Positions 1-8,357 of a stretch of DNA of 8,707 nt are shown piece by piece. Under the pieces are notes generated by a model that saw only the letters and a list, made by a program, of their open reading frames with translations, was not told where the DNA came from and ran no database searches. Position 1 is the first letter of the stretch, and each line of letters opens with the position of its first letter. The stretch comes from Candidatus Electronema aureum (GTDB lineage: Bacteria > Desulfobacterota > Desulfobulbia > Desulfobulbales > Desulfobulbaceae): contig NQJD01000062.1 of assembly GCA_004284765.1 (NCBI GenBank), positions 1 through 8,707 of the forward strand. The letters are read 5' to 3'. The position numbers and the translations under genes are program-made.

Positions 1-726
1 ATTCGCCCTCTGAAAACTGAGACCAAGTCGGAAGTCAACTTTTTCAATATTATATTGTTTTTAATGGTAAATTCAATGTGTTTTTTAGGGAGCCGTTCGC
101 TTTGCCACTCATGGTTCACCATTACCCAATATGTGAAAGATCTTTCTGATATGGTTATCCTTGATTCTCTGTTGAGTCAGCAGGATCGCTTTGGCAACCA
201 GCACAAGAAAGCATATATCTACAAGATAGAAGGCGACAAGATCAAAAAGCATAAAGTAAAAGCCGCCAAAAACAGCTCTGGGAAAGCTATCGGCTGGAGA
301 ATCGGCATAGAGGAAAAAGCGTTGATCGATCAGGGCGGGGTTCTTGTTCAAGAGTTCTTGATGAAGGATAATGACTGCGGAGTCAAGAAGACAAACATTC
401 AGATGAATGCCAAAACGATTGAGAAGGTACGACACATCAGCCCTTCAAGCTATTTCAGGCTTGTAAAGCTCAGGACATCTGTGCAAGATGAGCAGGCCTT
501 ACCTGTAAGCAAACGGGTGATTGAGAACTATTTCAAGACTGAGCTGTTATTCACAGACAGCGACATGAAATCATTTTACTCAAATTTAGAAAAGGTTACT
601 TCTTCTTTGCAGAAGAGTTGTAAGGCAGGTCTGCTGAAATTAGATGCAGACGTGCATATTCAGTTGCAACGTAAAGAAGCTCCAACTTATTGCGAGCTTG
701 ATCAAGCGTCTGCTACATTCCTGTAG
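1..726 (+). CDS. Hypothetical protein, 5'-partial (open to the left window edge); possible atypical-kinase-like C-terminal lobe
   Basis: Frame 1 has no stop from nt 1 to TAG 724-726. The 223-aa track ORF (TTG at 55) is therefore probably the tail of a longer protein. The ordered motifs LSDMVILDSLLSQQDRFGN, FLMKDNDCG and SSYFRLVKL recall the catalytic loop (D-R-x-x-N), the metal loop (D-N-x-x-G) and the following helix of Fam20/CotH/HipA-style atypical kinases. This is pattern recall, not a search result. Confidence 0.5.
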   Translation: MRPLKTETKSEVNFFNIILFLMVNSMCFLGSRSLCHSWFTITQYVKDLSDMVILDSLLSQQDRFGNQHKKAYIYKIEGDKIKKHKVKAAKNSSGKAIGWRIGIEEKALIDQGGVLVQEFLMKDNDCGVKKTNIQMNAKTIEKVRHISPSSYFRLVKLRTSVQDEQALPVSKRVIENYFKTELLFTDSDMKSFYSNLEKVTSSLQKSCKAGLLKLDADVHIQLQRKEAPTYCELDQASATFL

Positions 727-983: not shown

Positions 984-1037
984 TGTAGTTGTCTGAACAG
1001 TTTCTTTTTTGTGAAGAGAGCCAAGCGGAGGCAGTGG

Positions 1038-3965
1038 ATGCACAGGTGCGAACTCATTGACACCACCCTGAGAGAAGGAGCGCAGGCACCGGGCGTTGCC
1101 TTCACCGCAGCGGCCCGCCTGCGCATTATTGCTGGGCTGGCGCAAGTCGGCATTGACGAGCTTGAGCTGGGCGCAGCTTCGCCGCTGCATCCGTGGCTGC
1201 CGGAGCTGCTCCACGAGGCCCGCGATTTGGTTGCCCAATCCTGCTGTCTCGCTCTCTGGTGCCGCTGCAAGGACGACGACATCGCCTTTGCCGCTGCCTG
1301 TCATCCCGACGTGCTGTCGCTGTCCATCCCCGTGTCTGACCGCCACATCCGCGAGCGTCTGCGCAAAGACCGCAGCTGGGTGCGCGAGACGCTGATTCAT
1401 TCTATCGAGCTGGCCTTGTCGCTGGGCATTCCTTCCATTTCTGTTGGCTTAGAAGATGCCTCCCGCGCCGAGCTGGACTTTGTTTGCGCAATGGCAAAGA
1501 CCGCAACGCAGCACGGCGCACGCCGCATCCGCCTCGCAGATACGGTGGGCATCTGCTCACCAGGCAGCATCCGCACGCTGGTGCTGGCCGTGAAAGGCGC
1601 GGTCAACCTGCCTATTGGGGTGCATTGCCACAATGATTTCGGCATGGCCACCGCGAATTCCATTGCCGCGCTTGAGGCAGGAGCCGTCAGTCTCGATGCA
1701 GCCGTGCTTGGCTTAGGCGAGCGGGCGGGCTGTTGCCGTCTTGAGGAAGCCGTCGGGTATCTCGCCTTGGTGCAGGGCAATCGCCGCTACAAGCCTGAGC
1801 ATCTGCCTGCGCTCTGCCAAGCCGTGGCTGAAGCAAGCGGCAGGAGCATCGCCGCCAGCCATCCTTTGGTCGGCGCAGATATCTTCACCTGCGAGACTGG
1901 CCTGCATCAGCACGGGCTGGCAATCAATCCGGCCACCTATGAGCCGTATCCGCCAGAGCGAGTTGGCAGCCAAAGAACCCTTCGTTTCGGCGAGAAGACA
2001 GGCAGGCGGGCCGTGGCTCTCCAGTTGGCAAAGCACGGCCTGCATCTTGAGGAAAGCGAAATCCAACAGCTTACCCGGCAGGTTCGTGCCTGCGGCAGCG
2101 TCCTCAGCGAGGGTGAACTGCTCCGCTTTGCGGCGACGGGGAGGAATGGCACAGCACACAGCAGAGGACTGATGAAGGGCACTGGTGATCTTATGGTGAA
2201 CATCACCAGTGAGGAGCGAGGCTGCACACTGGTGTCGAGCGTGTCTCCTCACCAGTGTCGAGAAGCGGACATCACTAGTGAGGAGAAGGCGACCACACCA
2301 GTGTCCTTTGCCAATGAACAGCAAACAGGGCCGCAAGGCTGCACAATAGAGGTATCATCCATGAACAATGAGAGCTGCATCTTTCCCACTTCCCGCTTTA
2401 CTACCGAGGCCTTGGAGGTCAAGGCACTGTACCGTATTGTTAAGCTAATCGATTCGGCAGTCCATCTCGATACCGTTCTGGCCGCTATTCTCAAGGTCTT
2501 GCACGACACCTTGCGCATGGAACGCGCGACCTTAGCCCTGCTTGATGACGACGGCCAGCGGCTGTCCATCTGCGCTTCCTATGGCCTGACTGTCGAGGAG
2601 GAACAGCGCGGGGTCTATAACTTAGATGAGGGCATCTGCGGCAAGGTCTTCAGCTCTGCCTCGCCCTTTATTGTCCCGGACGTGAGCAGCGAGCCGCTCT
2701 TCCTCAACCGCACTGGCGCACGCCCGATGTTCAGCAAGACGAAGATCGCCTTTATCGGGGTACCGGTACTGCTGGGCGAACAGCCAGTGGGCGTGCTGAG
2801 TGTGGATAGACTCTTTGGCATGGAGGTTTCGTTAGAGGAGGATGTCCGTTTCCTGACCGTGCTGGCAACGCTGATCGCCCAATTCCTCAGCCTCAACCGA
2901 GCGATCAGCCGCGACCGCCAGCAGCTTGTCGAGGAGAACATCAGCCTGAAAGCCCAGCTCCACGACCGCCACCGCAAGCACTACATCATCGGCCATTGCA
3001 AGGCGATGCAGGAGGTGTTCTGGAGCATTGAGCGGGTAGCACCCAGCCAAGCCACGGTCCTGCTGCTGGGTGATTCCGGTACTGGTAAGGAGATGGTTGC
3101 GCAGGCCATTCATGAGGCGAGCACGCGCCGCGACAGGCCCTTTATCAAGATTAACTGCGCCGCCCTGCCTGAGTCCTTGTTGGAGAGCGAGCTGTTCGGG
3201 CATGAGAAAGGAGCCTTCACTGGCGCGGGCGGCACACGTATCGGGCGATTTGAGATGGCGGATAAAGGTTCGCTCTTCCTTGATGAGATCGGCGAGATGC
3301 CCTTGCTGCTCCAGTCGAAGCTGCTGCGGGTTTTGCAGGAGCAGCAGTTCGAACGTCTTGGTTCCAACCGCACGATCAAGGTAGATGTGCGCATCATTGC
3401 CGCCACCAATGTTAGCTTACAGCAGGCCGTGATCAACGGCAGCTTCCGCAATGATCTCTACTATCGCCTCAACGTGGTGCCGATTATTCTGCCTTCCCTC
3501 AAGGAGAGGAAAGATGACATCCCGGTCTTGGTTGACCACTTTTTGAAACTGAGCAACGAGCGCAATAAGAAGAAGCTGCGGATGAGCAGGGATTTCCTTG
3601 AGGCGATGACTGGTTATGACTGGCCCGGCAATGTGCGTGAGTTGCAGAATCTGGTTGAGCGTTTGGTGATCCTCTCTGCCGGAGACCTGCTGCGCTTGGA
3701 AGACCTACCCGACTACTTCTTTGCGCCCAAGCAAGTGATCGCTTTGCCTCTCACGCAAGCTGTTGAGCCAGTGGTAAGCCAACCACCCGCCGCCCCGCAG
3801 CGGCGTAAGTCGTTAGAAGATGTTGAGCGCGAGCAGGTGGAGGAAGCCTTGCTCCGCCACGGCTGGGTGCAAGCGCGGGCAGCACGAGAGCTGGGCCTGA
3901 CGCAACGGCAGATTGGCTACAAGATACAGAAGTTTAAGCTGATCAGGCCGGAGTTTGCGAGGTAG
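1038..3965 (+). CDS. Fusion protein: NifV-like homocitrate synthase (HMGL-like / DRE-TIM metallolyase) domain plus a NifA-type sigma-54-dependent transcriptional activator (GAF, AAA+, Fis-type HTH)
   Basis: The frame is open across 960-3965. I place the start at ATG 1038 because GGAGG at 1027-1031 sits 6 nt upstream and the DTTLREGAQ motif then begins at residue 8, as in NifV/HCS N-termini. N-terminal half motifs: [69 protein letters not shown]-terminal half motifs: NifA-like GAF (ALYRIVKLI...GEGICGKV...FIGVPV...GVLSVDR), Walker [24 protein letters not shown], Walker [16 protein letters not shown], and [28 protein letters not shown]. The stop is TAG 3963-3965. Confidence 0.85.
1050..2129 (+). 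other. nifV: NifV/homocitrate-synthase-like catalytic (HMGL-like) domain of the fusion ORF
   Basis: Residues 31-390 on track-ORF numbering. The DRE-TIM signature order is preserved: LREGxQ, ED.SRA, HxHxD.G, GLGERAG, GxH..G. There are deviations from the canonical NifV motifs as I recall them: GEQ becomes GAQ, GERAGNA becomes GERAGCC, and FTHEAGIH becomes FTCETGLH. Confidence 0.75.
2180..2303. repeat. Phased array of six CACYRGTG octamers in alternating orientation within the inter-domain linker
   Basis: CACTGGTG 2180-2187, CACCAGTG 2204-2211, CACTGGTG 2227-2234, CACCAGTG 2250-2257, CACTAGTG 2273-2280, CACCAGTG 2296-2303. Start-to-start spacing is 24, 23, 23, 23 and 23 bp. CACTGGTG and CACCAGTG are reverse complements, so each neighbouring pair can form an 8-9-bp hairpin. 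Flanks also repeat: acatCACYAGTGaggag at 2200 and 2269 (69 bp apart, giving ITSEE twice in the protein), and GTGtcgag at 2232 and 2255. Confidence 0.8.
2412..2879 (+). other. GAF sensory domain (NifA-type)
   Basis: Residues ~485-640: [51 protein letters not shown]...[11 protein letters not shown]...[16 protein letters not shown]...[22 protein letters not shown]. This matches the NifA N-terminal GAF pattern. Confidence 0.75.
2982..3674 (+). other. Sigma-54 interaction AAA+ domain
   Basis: Walker A GDSGTGKE (3069-3092), GAFTGA sigma-54 contact loop (3210-3227), Walker [32 protein letters not shown]. Confidence 0.9.
3822..3944 (+). other. C-terminal Fis-type helix-turn-helix DNA-binding domain (NifA-like)
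   Basis: [39 protein letters not shown] closely follows the NifA C-terminal pattern GWVQAKAAR.LG.T.RQ..Y.IQK. Confidence 0.85.
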
Positions 3966-4172: not shown

Positions 4173-4470
4173 TTAGGTAGCGATCTTCTCCCCAAACGCC
4201 CTGATCTGGGCCATGATGCCGTCTAAGGTGAAGCGGCCCATGTCAATGGCCATCGTTGGACAGCGGGCGGCGCAGACACCGCAGCCCTTGCAGGAGGCGG
4301 TGATGGTGCGGGCCTTGCGCTTCCTGAATGCCGGTGGAGAGCGCGAGCAGGTCGGCGGTCAGCTCCAGCTCCTCGCCCAGCAGCGGGTCGAAATCAAAAT
4401 AACGCACTGTAGGATTGCTGGCTTCCTGGGATGCTTCTGGTCGGAAATGCGCAAAATATCGCCCGTGAAT
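4173..4470 (-). pseudogene. Degraded HdrA-like (FAD-dependent pyridine-nucleotide-disulfide oxidoreductase with C-terminal 4Fe-4S ferredoxin motif) gene remnant
   Basis: My minus-strand translation gives two pieces. One frame (4470 down to the stop at 4243-4245) reads IHGRYFAHFRPEASQEASNPTVRYFDFDPLLGEELELTADLLALSTGIQEA..., where D-L-L-A-L-S-T-G-I resembles the DLVVLATG strand of HdrA-type flavoproteins. A second frame (4358 down to TAA 4173-4175) reads ...KARTITASCKGCGVCAARCPTMAIDMGRFTLDGIMAQIRAFGEKIAT*, a CxxCxxCxxxCP cluster motif at a typical HdrA C-terminus. There is no start codon or N-terminal FAD domain, the frame changes, and the two pieces are far closer together than in full-length HdrA. 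Confidence 0.55.
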
Positions 4471-4481
4471 TCATATCCTCC

Positions 4482-4520
4482 TTGTTCTGGAGCGTATTTC
4501 ATAGTACATTAAAGTGTACA
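4482..4520 (+). promoter_or_regulatory. yefM-yoeB promoter with paired GTAC-core operator palindromes
   Basis: TTGTTC (4482-4487), 17 nt, then TACATT (4505-4510) form candidate -35/-10 elements. AGTACA (4503-4508) and TGTACA (4515-4520) have centres 12 bp apart. This matches the paired TGTACA-core palindromes at 12-bp spacing that I recall for the E. coli yefM-yoeB operator. Confidence 0.5.
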
Positions 4521-4543
4521 TGTTCACTTGGGAGGGTAAATGT

Positions 4544-4795
4544 ATGGAGACGATTACTTACACCACTGCACGGGGCAGTCTTGCTAAAACAATGAAAAAA
4601 GTCTGTGACGATCATTCGCCGGTGATTATCACCCGAAAGACTGCGCCGCCGGTGGTGATGATGTCGCTGGAGGATTTCTCTTCTTTGGAGGAAACTGCCT
4701 ATCTGCTGCGAAGTCCTGAAAATGCTCGGCGGCTGCTCAGATCAATTGCTGAACTGGAGAACGGTAAAGGCTGTGAGAAGGAGCTGGAGGATTGA
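4544..4795 (+). CDS. yefM: Type II antitoxin, Phd/YefM family
   Basis: [32 protein letters not shown]...[30 protein letters not shown] aligns along its length with E. coli YefM (MRTISYSEARQNL...[17 protein letters not shown]). GGAGGG at 4531-4536 sits 7 nt before ATG 4544. The track start at 4514 would add 10 unaligned residues. Confidence 0.9.
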
Positions 4796-5046
4796 AGCTG
4801 ATATTTTCAGAAGAGGCGTGGGAGGACTATCTGTACTGGCAGCAGGCCGACAAAAAAACGTTGAAGCGTATCAACCTGCTGATTCGTGAGATTCAGCGCA
4901 CACCTTGTGCCGGAATCGGTAAACCGGAGCCGCTGAAGCACGGTCTGTCCGGGTACTGGTCCCGCCGGATTACGGATGAACACCGCATTGTCTATAAGGC
5001 GGAAGAGGGTGCGGTGTTCATTGCTCAACTTCGTTATCATTATTAA
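4792..5046 (+). CDS. yoeB: Type II toxin, YoeB family ribosome-dependent mRNA interferase
   Basis: [70 protein letters not shown]...LRYHY closely parallels E. coli YoeB, including the residues equivalent to catalytic E46, R65, H83 and Y84. The TTG start (4792) overlaps the yefM TGA (4793-4795), indicating translational coupling. AAGGAG lies at 4777-4782. Confidence 0.9.
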
Positions 5047-5351: not shown

Positions 5352-8300
5352 TCAATCCTTAATACAACGTATACTAGCACCTGCCGCAGCAACATCACTA
5401 CTCATTCGTACAGAATCAGTAGAAACGTCAATTTCTACTACGATAAAACGAGCATAACCTGCGTAGTAAGACGATGATGACCAATACGTTGCCCTTTGAT
5501 TTTTTTGAATCACCTGACCAGTATCGCTACGTCTCATCCCAGCTAACGGCAACCGCAATATATCACCTGAAGGCCATCCTAACGAATTAATAGCTGGCCA
5601 GGAATCTAATTCTATCTGCCATTCCTGTTCGGTCGGCAACCTGAAACCGGCTGGACAAGGATTGTTTGTACCATCTTTTCCTTGCCATAATGACGAATTT
5701 TGAAGTTTTCTCCATTCAAACGGGTAATCTCCATTAACAATAAACATACCATGACCGGGAATGTTTGTAGCTGATATCGTTGTAGTTATTGGACTGTCAA
5801 ACTTTTCATGTCCGTCATGTCCCCGGCCCCATTGATAAAGATCACCATAGGCCTGCTCATCATCATAATTTGTTGCCACTCGTGAAGCCCCAAGATTTCG
5901 ATCCATCCAGATTCTGGATGTCAAAGAAGTTACCGTTGGGATTGTAGGCTCCTGTATTGTTATGGTTAGTTTCTTTTCTGTCCAAGGGACACTTTCAGAG
6001 GAACCAATACTTGATGTTACGACAGCAAAATATGTTTTTCCCACTGTACCTTGGAAACTCGCATTTGTTGTTGCTGTTTCTATGGTAAAACCATTTGTAT
6101 GTGAATCAAAACTTTTAGGGTCTATTCCACTTTTATCAGAAATGTAAACTTTATATCCATTTGCAAAAGGTGATGCGTCCCAGCTTAGATAAACAACTGC
6201 TGAATCGTTCGATGTAAGAGCTAAATTCTTTGGGGGCTGAGGCGTTACTATTTTTTTTGAAACGACATTTACAAAAAATAGCTCTTTTTCAGATTCTCCG
6301 CTTGGTGTGGTCACATTTACTCTTCCCCGGATAAATACATGGTTAGCTCCTATTGGAATTTCTGGTGCAATAAAAGAAGCTGTTGTCCCATTATTTAAAA
6401 TGGAAACCCCCTCAGGTGAAGTAATTCTCCAATCGTATTCGGTTCCTGATGGTGGTGTGTAGGGTTCTGAATCAAAATTAAGGTCACCATCATCTAATTT
6501 CAATAAAATTTGTTCTCCAGGTTCTGCTGTCTGGAATTTCTTAACCAGACTTAACGATAGTTCTTTCTGTAAAATTTCCTGATCAAAAGTCGATCCATAC
6601 TCATAGGTATTATTCAGCGAACTTGTGTGAATTATTCCGAGCGGATCATTTTTATATTTCTTATATTGAACCCATGTGGATATCCCCAAAAAATCGTTGG
6701 TCACATTGGGGTTGTCCATTTTTACTGCAAGGCAACCGTTATAAGTGTCTCCGTAGTTATATAGGTTGAATTTACTCCCGCCAATTCCTTGAGAGATGCC
6801 GTAATAAATCGAATTATTAAAAACACCGTTCTCTCCCAGTGAACGAAATTGTATCTGACCTTCATCTATAATCAATCCATCGTTCGATAAGTTTTCAAAT
6901 TCTACACAGACAACGATAAAGTCTTTGATGGTCGAGACCTTTTTGATACGGATGTCCATCATAGCTGTAGATGAATTCTGTTGAGCAGGTGAAAGAATAA
7001 TCGCTTTTGCTTGTAAATCTTGCACATTCCTGTTCACCATCTCGATGGCATCATTAACTATTTTATCAAATAGCACTTTATCAACATTTCTATTGTTTAT
7101 GAAGTGCTGTTTTAGTTCCGACCATGTTGCCGGATGCCCATATTCAGCTTGCTGTGTTACAAACGCAAGTTTTCCTGCGGCATTATAACGCGCATTAAGA
7201 TAATCCAAAGCGGCACTATATGTATCAATCTCATCTTGCTTGCTATAAAGCATCCATGCTGCTATTCCATTCAAATAGACTTGGTAAACCTCTTGCGAGA
7301 ATTGACTGACGCAGTCCAAAGCACTGAATTTAGAAATATCGCGTTCCAAAAGACACTCTTCATACACCCTGGATCCTTTCAGAAATCCATCAACAGCACC
7401 GGCAGCCCACAGTTCATCTTTTCCTATGAAATATTCTTTAATTTTATCCTCCGTCATCGAAGACAACTCGCCTTCTGCTTTATTCTCAATATTCTTTAAT
7501 AAGTATTTTGTACCATTAGGATTTGCATTAAGTGATGAAATAGCAGCAAAAGCATCTGCTATAAATTTTGCAGATTTTTCCGCTTCCTTTTTTCTTTCTA
7601 AAACATTAAGAGATTCCCATACCATTGCACGATGTTGAAGATTCATTAAAGGCTCTACATGAAAATGCCAAAAATAATGATTTAATCTATACCAGGCACT
7701 CATGGGTGCATCTCCTTCAAGAATATCTCTATTGCATGGAAAATCTGTCAAACAGCCAGCCAAGGGAGAGTTGCCATGATAATAATCATAAATACCAGAA
7801 TTTTTTAAAAGTTCAGCCTTAGGGGCATCAATAGAATGCTGAATACTGCCCGTCTCATTTGCATTAAACTCCTTGCCGACTAACGTTTTAAATTGGCTTC
7901 TAAAATTTTGATCGTTTGGATCCACTTCATATATGGAATAGCTGAGTTTTTTAAGTGCTTCATCATCAGTTGTTTTGATCTGTATTCCGTTATCGGGCAG
8001 TCCGTCAGAATCCAAGCTTTGCATAATCATGGCTACTTGTTCGTAGCTGCTCATCTCATCAACAAAAACGTATTTATCTGCTCGTACTACCCCAATTGTT
8101 TGTCCACCAATAAGAAACTTTATTGTATCGCCTTTATTGTAGCGATATTCACACTTTTCTGTTGTTCTTCCGCTGAGACCAGAGCTGGTCTCATATTGCA
8201 TATTCGATACACAACTATCGATAAATTTACCTGTTTGGATTTGTGAACTTATGATAGGAATTATTTTGAATAGTAAGGAGCTTGATGCAGCAAATCCAAC

Positions 8301-8357
8301 CCTGAATGGACAGATTACAAACAATAACAATATAAATAACCAACTTTTTTTACTCAT
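5352..8357 (-). CDS. Large secreted multidomain protein: signal peptide, unknown ~600-aa N-terminal region, Ig/PKD-like module, FN3 module, C-terminal FISUMP (Fibrobacter succinogenes major paralogous) domain
   Basis: The 1001-aa ORF has AGGTGA 4 nt upstream of ATG 8357. The N-terminus MSKKSWLFILLLFVICPFRVGFA/ASSS is Sec signal-like. YDWRITSPEGVSILNNGTTASFIAPE...VNVTTPSGESEKELFFVNVV is Ig/PKD-like. PPKNLALTSNDSAVVYLSWDASPFANGYKVYIS is FN3-like (~5960-6242). The last ~190 aa (5355-5936) read IWMDRNLGA...YGDLYQWGRGHDGHE...NPCPAGFRLPTEQEW...LPLAGMR...ATYWSSS...ASIRCIKD, which fits the FISUMP pattern. Confidence 0.85.
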   Translation of the reverse strand: MSKKSWLFILLLFVICPFRVGFAASSSLLFKIIPIISSQIQTGKFIDSCVSNMQYETSSGLSGRTTEKCEYRYNKGDTIKFLIGGQTIGVVRADKYVFVDEMSSYEQVAMIMQSLDSDGLPDNGIQIKTTDDEALKKLSYSIYEVDPNDQNFRSQFKTLVGKEFNANETGSIQHSIDAPKAELLKNSGIYDYYHGNSPLAGCLTDFPCNRDILEGDAPMSAWYRLNHYFWHFHVEPLMNLQHRAMVWESLNVLERKKEAEKSAKFIADAFAAISSLNANPNGTKYLLKNIENKAEGELSSMTEDKIKEYFIGKDELWAAGAVDGFLKGSRVYEECLLERDISKFSALDCVSQFSQEVYQVYLNGIAAWMLYSKQDEIDTYSAALDYLNARYNAAGKLAFVTQQAEYGHPATWSELKQHFINNRNVDKVLFDKIVNDAIEMVNRNVQDLQAKAIILSPAQQNSSTAMMDIRIKKVSTIKDFIVVCVEFENLSNDGLIIDEGQIQFRSLGENGVFNNSIYYGISQGIGGSKFNLYNYGDTYNGCLAVKMDNPNVTNDFLGISTWVQYKKYKNDPLGIIHTSSLNNTYEYGSTFDQEILQKELSLSLVKKFQTAEPGEQILLKLDDGDLNFDSEPYTPPSGTEYDWRITSPEGVSILNNGTTASFIAPEIPIGANHVFIRGRVNVTTPSGESEKELFFVNVVSKKIVTPQPPKNLALTSNDSAVVYLSWDASPFANGYKVYISDKSGIDPKSFDSHTNGFTIETATTNASFQGTVGKTYFAVVTSSIGSSESVPWTEKKLTITIQEPTIPTVTSLTSRIWMDRNLGASRVATNYDDEQAYGDLYQWGRGHDGHEKFDSPITTTISATNIPGHGMFIVNGDYPFEWRKLQNSSLWQGKDGTNNPCPAGFRLPTEQEWQIELDSWPAINSLGWPSGDILRLPLAGMRRSDTGQVIQKNQRATYWSSSSYYAGYARFIVVEIDVSTDSVRMSSDVAAAGASIRCIKD

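Follow-up and report, generated by a model that had tools for sequence, protein, structure and literature searches.

The window analysed here is a stretch of 8,707 nucleotides, contig NQJD01000062.1 (assembly GCA_004284765.1), from the cable bacterium Candidatus Electronema aureum. Positions 1038 to 3965 of its + strand form a single open reading frame (ORF) of 975 aa, in which a domain similar to NifV, a homocitrate synthase (HCS), is joined to the sigma-54-dependent activator NifA. The comparison of this ORF with its relatives argued, with good confidence, for a real and recent fusion in strain GS that arose by the erosion of a gene boundary, probably as an incidental read-through and not as an evolved signalling architecture. 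Its catalytic and regulatory modules were both intact.

The nifV-nifA reading frame in strain GS

The first-pass annotation of the window, made from the letters alone, had described one frame running from a NifV-type N-terminus through a linker of ~90 aa into a complete NifA module, and this description was confirmed by the ORF analysis and by Pfam. The frame was stop-free from an ATG at 1038, or from a GTG at 960, and ended with a TAG at 3965; the length of 975 aa is counted from the ATG. The NifV-like module (1038 to 2143, aa 1-369) was composed of an HMGL-like TIM barrel (PF00682, aa 4-246, E = 1.9e-59) and HCS_D2 (PF22617, aa 278-353), and no LeuA_dimer, the LeuA-type regulatory domain, was detected by Pfam in the 975-aa product. 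It was followed by a linker of 73 codons (2144 to 2360), consisting of a frameshifted nifV tail and a translated former spacer, and by the NifA module (2361 to 3965), which contained GAF (aa 477-615), the AAA+ domain Sigma54_activat (aa 650-816, E = 2.1e-73), AAA_lid_14 (aa 822-898) and HTH_8, a Fis-type helix-turn-helix (HTH) domain (aa 925-966). The GAFTGA loop, which makes the contact with sigma-54, was present in the translation, as were all of the other motifs quoted in the first-pass annotation.

Judged by its sequence, the C-terminal half can be regarded as a bona fide member of the NifA family. The NCBIfam model TIGR01817 scored 550.4 bits with the whole protein and 552.1 bits with the C-terminal half, exceeding its cutoff of 528.85, and both this model and Pfam agreed with the claim that the GAF, AAA+ (GAFTGA) and HTH module was complete. 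The N-terminal half was most similar to NifV/homocitrate synthase, yet it stayed under the curated NifV threshold: TIGR02660 was its top NCBIfam model with 325.1 bits, below the cutoff of 462.9. Homocitrate synthases in the PDB (6KTQ, 3IVS, and 2ZTJ) matched the domain with E values from 4.5e-46 to 2e-38, and the N-terminal module was 94% identical to a stand-alone homologue, P0111.

The window was contained, in its whole length, at positions 8964-17670 of L006, the closed genome OW818638.1, a 2.94-Mb contig of GCA_942492785.1, in which the 975-aa protein was found by exact-sequence look-up. Independent Logan assemblies of SRR14559658 and SRR14559659 also encode the same protein, and their two contigs (L007 and L008) showed 0 mismatches with the window across ~4.16 kb. 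At NCBI the protein is recorded as CAK8720913.1 and TAA73758.1 (UniRef100_A0A521FYB6) with the organism label Candidatus Electronema aureum, and the second record of the identical protein carries the label of a metagenome-assembled genome (MAG). Its public name, ‘Nif-specific regulatory protein’, conceals the enzyme half, which is a point for annotation.

Since two independent assemblies and the closed genome agreed exactly in the ORF DNA, the fused ORF is the true sequence of strain GS, and an assembly artefact is very unlikely. Such an artefact would have consisted of a false indel near 2143 together with a mis-assembled repeat, the real junction reading GGAGGAGAAT or holding a shorter array, with the two genes separate. 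The context gives some reason for this suspicion, since the junction sits in a short GAG repeat followed by a 23-bp tandem repeat, both error-prone, and Nanopore reads were used for the closed genome (PMC10030654). Nevertheless, the separate Sequence Read Archive runs yielded identical DNA, the MAG-labelled record holds an identical protein, and the closed genome of strain GS agrees with the earlier short-read MAG at an average nucleotide identity of 100% and a rate of single-nucleotide polymorphisms of <0.1% (PMC10030654). Several substitutions, and not one indel alone, also separate this region from that of the near relative L009. Hence, a sequencing or assembly error was considered scarcely credible.

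The first-pass annotation had also supposed the architecture to be rare, and three large protein searches, in which no other fusion of HMGL and sigma-54 domains appeared, bore this out. No full-length match to the 975-aa protein was found among 5.8e9 clusters, where the top matches were stand-alone NifA proteins of 537-551 aa from Electrothrix and Desulfobulbaceae (70-89% identity, covering 53-55% of the query). The best 120 hits of the N-terminal domain were all of 274-425 aa, with HMGL-like and HCS_D2 only and no extra domains. Of the top 150 hits of an exhaustive HMMER search of 1.84e9 representatives, six that were long or matched in several stretches were scanned and contained no HMGL; they were proteins with tandem sigma-54 domains or with other inputs (FHA, PAS, receiver). 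The other 12 members of the 90%-identity cluster were stand-alone NifA proteins, full-length or partial (326-539 aa), together with P0111, a stand-alone NifV of 378 aa; the cluster mates of 528-539 aa start at or near the nifA ATG at 2361. A test for a recurrent fusion family, with HMGL-like and Sigma54_activat combined in other genomes or lineages, thus came out negative, and the fusion is a singleton, unique among the sampled sequences. No natural NifV-NifA fusion was mentioned in the searchable papers dealing with cable bacteria or with nif regulation, and the searchable literature was likewise silent on nifA and nifV in cable bacteria. Events in which neighbouring genes of one orientation are fused through a lost stop or a frameshift are well known as a class; the pairing of NifV with NifA was not encountered elsewhere.

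Origin of the junction between the two genes

The orthologous loci of relatives, whose comparison the first-pass annotation had proposed, contained two genes throughout, and the fusion was absent from all of them. Separate, adjacent nifV and nifA genes were found at 11 distinct cable-bacterial loci, within L001-L005, L009-L015, and L173-L175. The loci with both genes were L001 (JGI 3300056860), L002/L003 (GCA_026645415), L004/L005 (Electrothrix sp. YB6), L009 (ERZ15184958), L010 (ERR2683217), L011 (JGI 3300048585), L012 (SRR28468920), L013 (Electronema sp. PJ), L014 (E. gigas), L015 (Electronema sp. JM), L173 (E. scaldis), and L174/L175 (Electrothrix sp.). Wherever both genes were retrieved from cable bacteria, a nifV-like gene encoding 369-407 aa immediately preceded nifA in the same orientation, with a spacer of 24-232 nt. 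No upstream nifV was present at the nifA homologues L176 and L177, and no nifA was found downstream of the NifV-like genes of other Desulfobulbales and Desulfovibrionales, or downstream of the NifV matches in metagenomes (at least three listed, ~60% identity). Since all of the cable-bacterial pairs were separate and the others unpaired, the pairing of nifV with nifA is a trait of cable bacteria, and the fusion a trait of strain GS.

Other nif genes were neighbours of the homologous nifV-nifA or nifA loci: nifB in L002, nifH in L174/L175, and nifB together with a nitrogenase-family Oxidored_nitro gene beside the nifA homologue of L177. No nif structural genes occurred within the window, and the statement of the first-pass annotation that it contained no further nif genes held.

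The junction flanks were nearly identical to those of L009 and L010 in the alignment, and the DNA identity between the window and L009 was 95% for nifV and 91% for nifA. Two length differences were observed. The first was a deletion of 2 bp relative to L009 and L010, between 2143 and 2144 on the + strand (GGGGAGGAGAAT changed to GGGGAGGAAT), 27 nt before the TGA of nifV. This ancestral stop, at 2170-2172, is now in frame +1 and bypassed, and the ancestral C-terminus ...MAQHTAED, which matches that of P0111, can still be read in a +1-frame ORF at 1741-2172. The second was the presence of 46 extra bp, two units of the 23-bp repeat, absent from L009 and L010 and aligned at ~2214-2259 with boundaries that cannot be placed exactly inside the repeat. 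The nifA of L009 occupies frame +1 with respect to its nifV, and -2 + 46 = +44 nt in sum move nifA to frame 0 in the window. Hence, nifV is in frame with nifA in strain GS because the 2-bp deletion and the 46-bp repeat difference are combined.

When the 2 bp were restored in silico, a normal NifV of 378 aa ending in ...AQHTAED was obtained, like P0111, and when the deletion was kept and the 46 bp were removed, NifV extended to 421 aa and stopped 14 nt before the nifA ATG. The repeat polymorphism alone would accordingly be silent, and a 2-bp deletion on a permissive repeat length would be sufficient. The tail of NifV beyond ...ELLRFAA was hypervariable between strains, which end in AAGRRIAQHTAED, AAAGRS, AAAGSNG, AAAAAARVR, or AAANSV before the stop, and the boundary between the two genes seems to be evolutionarily fluid. 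According to the first-pass annotation, an indel or stop between ~2130 and ~2360 that restored separate genes would speak against the fusion; such an indel does distinguish the relatives, but it is not present in strain GS, where the fused state is true.

The events that would have led to the fusion can be summarised as two length changes in the variable 3′ end of nifV and in the spacer, in the lineage to strain GS. Ribosomes translating nifV would then pass the old stop, continue through the 73 codons derived from tail and spacer and arrive in the reading frame of nifA, and the presumed product would be the 975-aa NifV-linker-NifA polypeptide.

The linker itself carried little that resembled a coding sequence. 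Its GC contents at the three codon positions were 0.53/0.53/0.58, against means of 0.65/0.42/0.72 in the rest of the ORF, and no 73-codon window of the coding sequence had a third-position GC as low, or a difference between third and second positions as small, as the linker. The homologous DNA was intergenic in L009, L010, L012, and L001. No mark of protein-coding selection was found in it: the GC content was flat across codon positions, the DNA contained a variable-number tandem repeat, and it was non-coding in the relatives. The linker is best described as a translated former non-coding spacer that lacks the codon-position bias of coding DNA. Across 2140-2360, frame 0 contained no stop codons, and frames 1 and 2 contained four and five, respectively.

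The repeat within the spacer (2203-2305, + strand) was a tandem array whose imperfect 23-bp units have CACYRGTG cores that alternate in orientation, reported by TRF with a period of 23 in two overlapping rows of ~2.5 copies each with 70% matches. Its copy number differed between strains, and spacers of 142 nt (L009 and L010), 188 nt (window), 220 nt (L001), and 232 nt (L012) were measured. The spacer RNA was more structured than shuffled sequences (z = -3.5) because the CACCAGTG/CACTGGTG cores alternate in orientation. The repeat was seen in Electronema-type spacers (L001 4183-4402, L012 1436-1667, and L009 3628-3769), and among the 177 loci the motif occurred only in the nifV-nifA spacer. It could represent regulatory sites, an attenuator or an element of the repetitive extragenic palindromic type. 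No terminator-like site was present in the nifV-nifA spacer. As 23 is not a multiple of 3, a change of copy number could conceivably turn the fusion on or off, in the manner of a contingency locus.

A different arrangement was observed in four of the relatives, in which nifA lies in frame behind the lone stop of nifV (L002 5965-6001, L004 5974-6001, L014 4608-4665, and L011 4821-5001); a single nonsense-to-sense change, or read-through, would join the genes there. The pattern is broken by L173 (frame +1) and by L174/L175 (second stop), and it may be due to chance. Programmed read-through and an ancestral fusion were considered as well and found to be unsupported, given the frame of L173 and the second stop of L174/L175.

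Expression signals, conserved residues and the meaning of the fusion

The fused ORF probably starts with the ATG at 1038, because a GGAGG Shine-Dalgarno (SD) sequence lies at 1027-1031 (+ strand), 6 nt ahead of it, and the stand-alone P0111 begins with the same MHRCELID. This SD sequence was kept in L009, L010, and L012. Ribosomes starting at 1038 in strain GS should run into nifA and give the 975-aa protein. The native signals of nifA, an SD sequence AGAGG (2348-2352) and the ATG (2361-2363), lie inside the ORF (2348-2363, + strand) and were identical to those of L009, L010, and L012, where the separate nifA starts with MNNESCI. Because both elements are intact, free NifA can probably still arise by internal initiation.

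Upstream of nifV, a sigma-54-type promoter-like element, TGGCACGCTTTATGAA, was located at 968-983 on the + strand; its -24 TGGCAC is perfect, its -12 element atypical. It was the only match in the window to TGGCAC-N5-TTGCW at up to two mismatches. The block TGGCAC-N5-TTGAAT was kept in the otherwise diverged upstream DNA of L009, L010, L012, and L001, and L011 has TTGTAT; the -12 element of the window reads ATGAA, and GA or GT replaces the canonical GC at -12 in this block. A conserved GCCGAAWWTGTSC was also seen ahead of it. The spacers between nifV and nifA are short in some Electrothrix species (24-33 nt), and these spacers, together with the conserved promoter-like element upstream of nifV, suggest that the two genes probably form one sigma-54-dependent operon. 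The usual position of the nifV-like gene of cable bacteria, upstream of nifA and behind such an element, suggests an autoregulated co-expression of the regulator with homocitrate synthase. Sites of the form TGT-N10-ACA, the upstream activating sequence of NifA, were noted at 984 and 2256 and rejected, as they were not conserved in the relatives.

The conservation of the enzyme half was tabulated over 124 sequences, namely the window and its 123 closest NifV-like homologues, all of the latter stand-alone. E139, H196, H198, H290, and Y301 were invariant, and R12, E13, and Q16 were unchanged wherever they were covered (122/124, with a gap in the other two). R12/E13, E139, H196/H198, H290, and Y301 line up with the counterpart residues of solved homocitrate synthases. 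E13 (of the RE motif) and the HxH pair H196/H198 are taken by us to be the metal ligands, and E139 and H290 to be the catalytic Glu/His pair, the catalytic His presumably being the GIH histidine, which is kept here. The claim of the first-pass annotation that the metal-binding HxH and the GxH histidine are retained was in full agreement with this tabulation.

The three departures from canonical motifs that had been listed, GAQ, GERAGC, and TCE, are present in the sequence, but they are not tied to the fusion, since stand-alone homologues have them too. GAQ occurred in 19 of the 124 sequences (GEQ in 94), GERAGC in 32 (GERAGN in 91), and the Cys of FTCE in all but one (123/124). FxCExGLH was present in 30 of 36 hits from Thermodesulfobacteriota, and archaeal and other homologues have FxHExGIH. 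Hence, these departures are clade-wide traits of stand-alone NifV-like proteins, unrelated to the fusion. The near-invariant Cys in the FxCExGLH motif of the Thermodesulfobacteriota NifV-like clade (L013-L051 and L093-L122) corresponds to aa 285 of the window protein, nt ~1890, and its counterpart is His in the three aligned solved homocitrate and isopropylmalate synthases. The isopropylmalate synthase of M. tuberculosis is reportedly an active family member without the first His. Overall, the NifV-like domain has the appearance of a working enzyme from a divergent branch of NifV-like proteins, and not that of a degenerate sensor.

These data bear on the proposal, made in the first-pass annotation, of a metabolite-sensing role for the N-terminal domain as an input to NifA or, alternatively, of a protein evolved to act as both enzyme and regulator. 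In such an adaptive fusion, the NifV-like domain would bind 2-oxoglutarate, acetyl-CoA, or homocitrate and thereby control NifA, or a bifunctional protein with 1:1 stoichiometry would have been selected. The metal-binding and catalytic residues of the HMGL/HCS part and the NifA domains are indeed all intact, the conserved adjacency of nifV and nifA among cable bacteria points to a functional connection, the genes are joined by the sole frame free of stops, and no gene for NifL or PII was found in the window. Nevertheless, the fusion is a singleton, and the two genes are separate in its nearest relatives (91-98% identity); its junction is the product of indels; and its linker is translated repeat and spacer DNA that lacks a coding signature. 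The internal start signals of nifA are unchanged, stand-alone homologues show the motif departures as well, and the loss of a stop between neighbouring genes of one orientation commonly yields a neutral fusion. Therefore, the proposal was not upheld, and an adaptive origin was considered unlikely. A sensor-regulator is possible, its positive support coming down to the intactness of both halves. That the 975-aa protein is made and functional in strain GS, tethering a homocitrate synthase that binds 2-oxoglutarate and acetyl-CoA to the nif activator in such a way that carbon status or the synthesis of the precursor of the iron-molybdenum cofactor modulates nif transcription, seems distinctly improbable.

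A further alternative, an incipient loss of function, would mean that the fusion impairs NifV, NifA, or both, under relaxed selection on nitrogen fixation in an IS-rich genome (IS, insertion sequence) maintained in ammonium-replete sediment enrichments. The surroundings of the locus fit this idea, as they include IS elements, accessory DNA of low GC, and a ferredoxin-type remnant with a frameshift, and many IS elements were described in the closed genome (PMC10030654); the C-terminus of NifV and the spacer are also hypervariable between strains. Against this, both modules are of full length, free of internal stops and frameshifts, and keep the invariant residues, and the own ATG of nifA is still usable. 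In addition, NifDHK is encoded in all of the cable bacteria genomes analysed (PMC10030654). A decaying locus was thus regarded as quite unlikely.

The incidental read-through fusion remains the favoured explanation, and the fused gene is most likely tolerated, being neutral or slightly deleterious. Several points weigh against it. The open frame and the two required length changes would amount to a coincidence of roughly 1-10%, depending on the null; such a value is notable, but unremarkable for a case that was chosen because it is open. The sole stop-free frame could reflect selection for the fusion. All four records may stem from one enrichment culture, and the mutation could have arisen in culture. 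Furthermore, clustered libraries can conceal rare fused variants behind unfused representatives.

As a recent indel product of one strain, the fusion constitutes weak evidence of a novel way of sensing. Provided that the fusion protein is produced, it would be a natural experiment on the tolerance of NifA towards a large N-terminal enzyme domain, and it could be of interest for the engineering of nif regulation.

Surroundings of the locus and comparison with known systems

The nifV-nifA ORF has a GC content of 59%, which corresponds to the composition of core genes (54-62% in the closed genome); the flanks of the window, at 37-45%, appear to be accessory or IS DNA. The possibility that the high GC of the two genes marks a horizontal transfer was considered and rejected, since core genes in L006 lie at 54-62% GC as well, the low-GC part being the flanks. 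Upstream, at 55-726 (+ strand), lies an ORF of 223 aa with 43% GC and no Pfam family, which was also called in the closed genome (L006) and in L007 and L008; at this position, upstream of nifV, L009 has a different gene of 474 aa.

Between nifA and an antitoxin gene, a frameshifted remnant of a ferredoxin-type C-terminus (…LSTGIQEAQGP / TITASCKGCGVCAARCPTMAIDMGRFTLDGIMAQIRAFGEKIAT) with the motif CKGCGVCAARCP was found on the - strand at 4173-4502, with 93% DNA identity to L009. A pseudogene fragment is the probable interpretation, and the gene call of 90 aa that overlies it on the + strand is doubtful. A YefM/Phd antitoxin (93 aa as listed ORF, 83 aa in L006) and a YoeB toxin (84 aa) follow at 4514-5046 (+ strand), with an overlap of 4 nt, and this pair is also located downstream of nifA in L009. 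A protein of 1001 aa with 38% GC is encoded at 5352-8357 on the - strand; its C-terminus matched Fib_succ_major with 31.7 bits, below the Pfam cutoff of 33.9, and a hydrophobic stretch resembling a signal sequence was seen by eye at its N-terminus. Together with a DDE transposase, this gene forms an insertion relative to L009 (L006 14315-18377). No Rfam family matched in the window.

Among known systems, the locus resembles the ‘Rosetta-stone’ fusions of adjacent genes, in that co-oriented neighbours are joined through a translated spacer, their domains are unchanged, and the downstream start is kept. It differs in that a frameshifting 2-bp deletion and a permissive copy number of the 23-bp repeat were needed; it is also confined to one strain and, for this reason, gives little evidence for a physical interaction between the partners.

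The likeness to NifA (TIGR01817) extends over the C-terminal 534 aa, with the full set of GAF, AAA+ (GAFTGA), lid, and HTH_8. The stand-alone NifA proteins of cable bacteria (537-551 aa) are 70-89% identical to it, and the cluster mates at least ~90%. The difference lies in the enzyme domain of 369 aa and the linker of 73 codons before GAF, an arrangement found in no other NifA; a NifL partner gene is missing from the vicinity, and inspection of the translation by eye revealed no inter-domain Cys motif.

With NifV and the homocitrate synthases (TIGR02660; 6KTQ, 3IVS, and 2ZTJ), the protein shares the HMGL-like TIM barrel, HCS_D2, and the key residues. It differs from them by a score below the equivalog cutoff and by belonging to a clade with Cys in place of His in FxHExGIH, and, in strain GS, by a C-terminal tail that has been replaced and continues into NifA.

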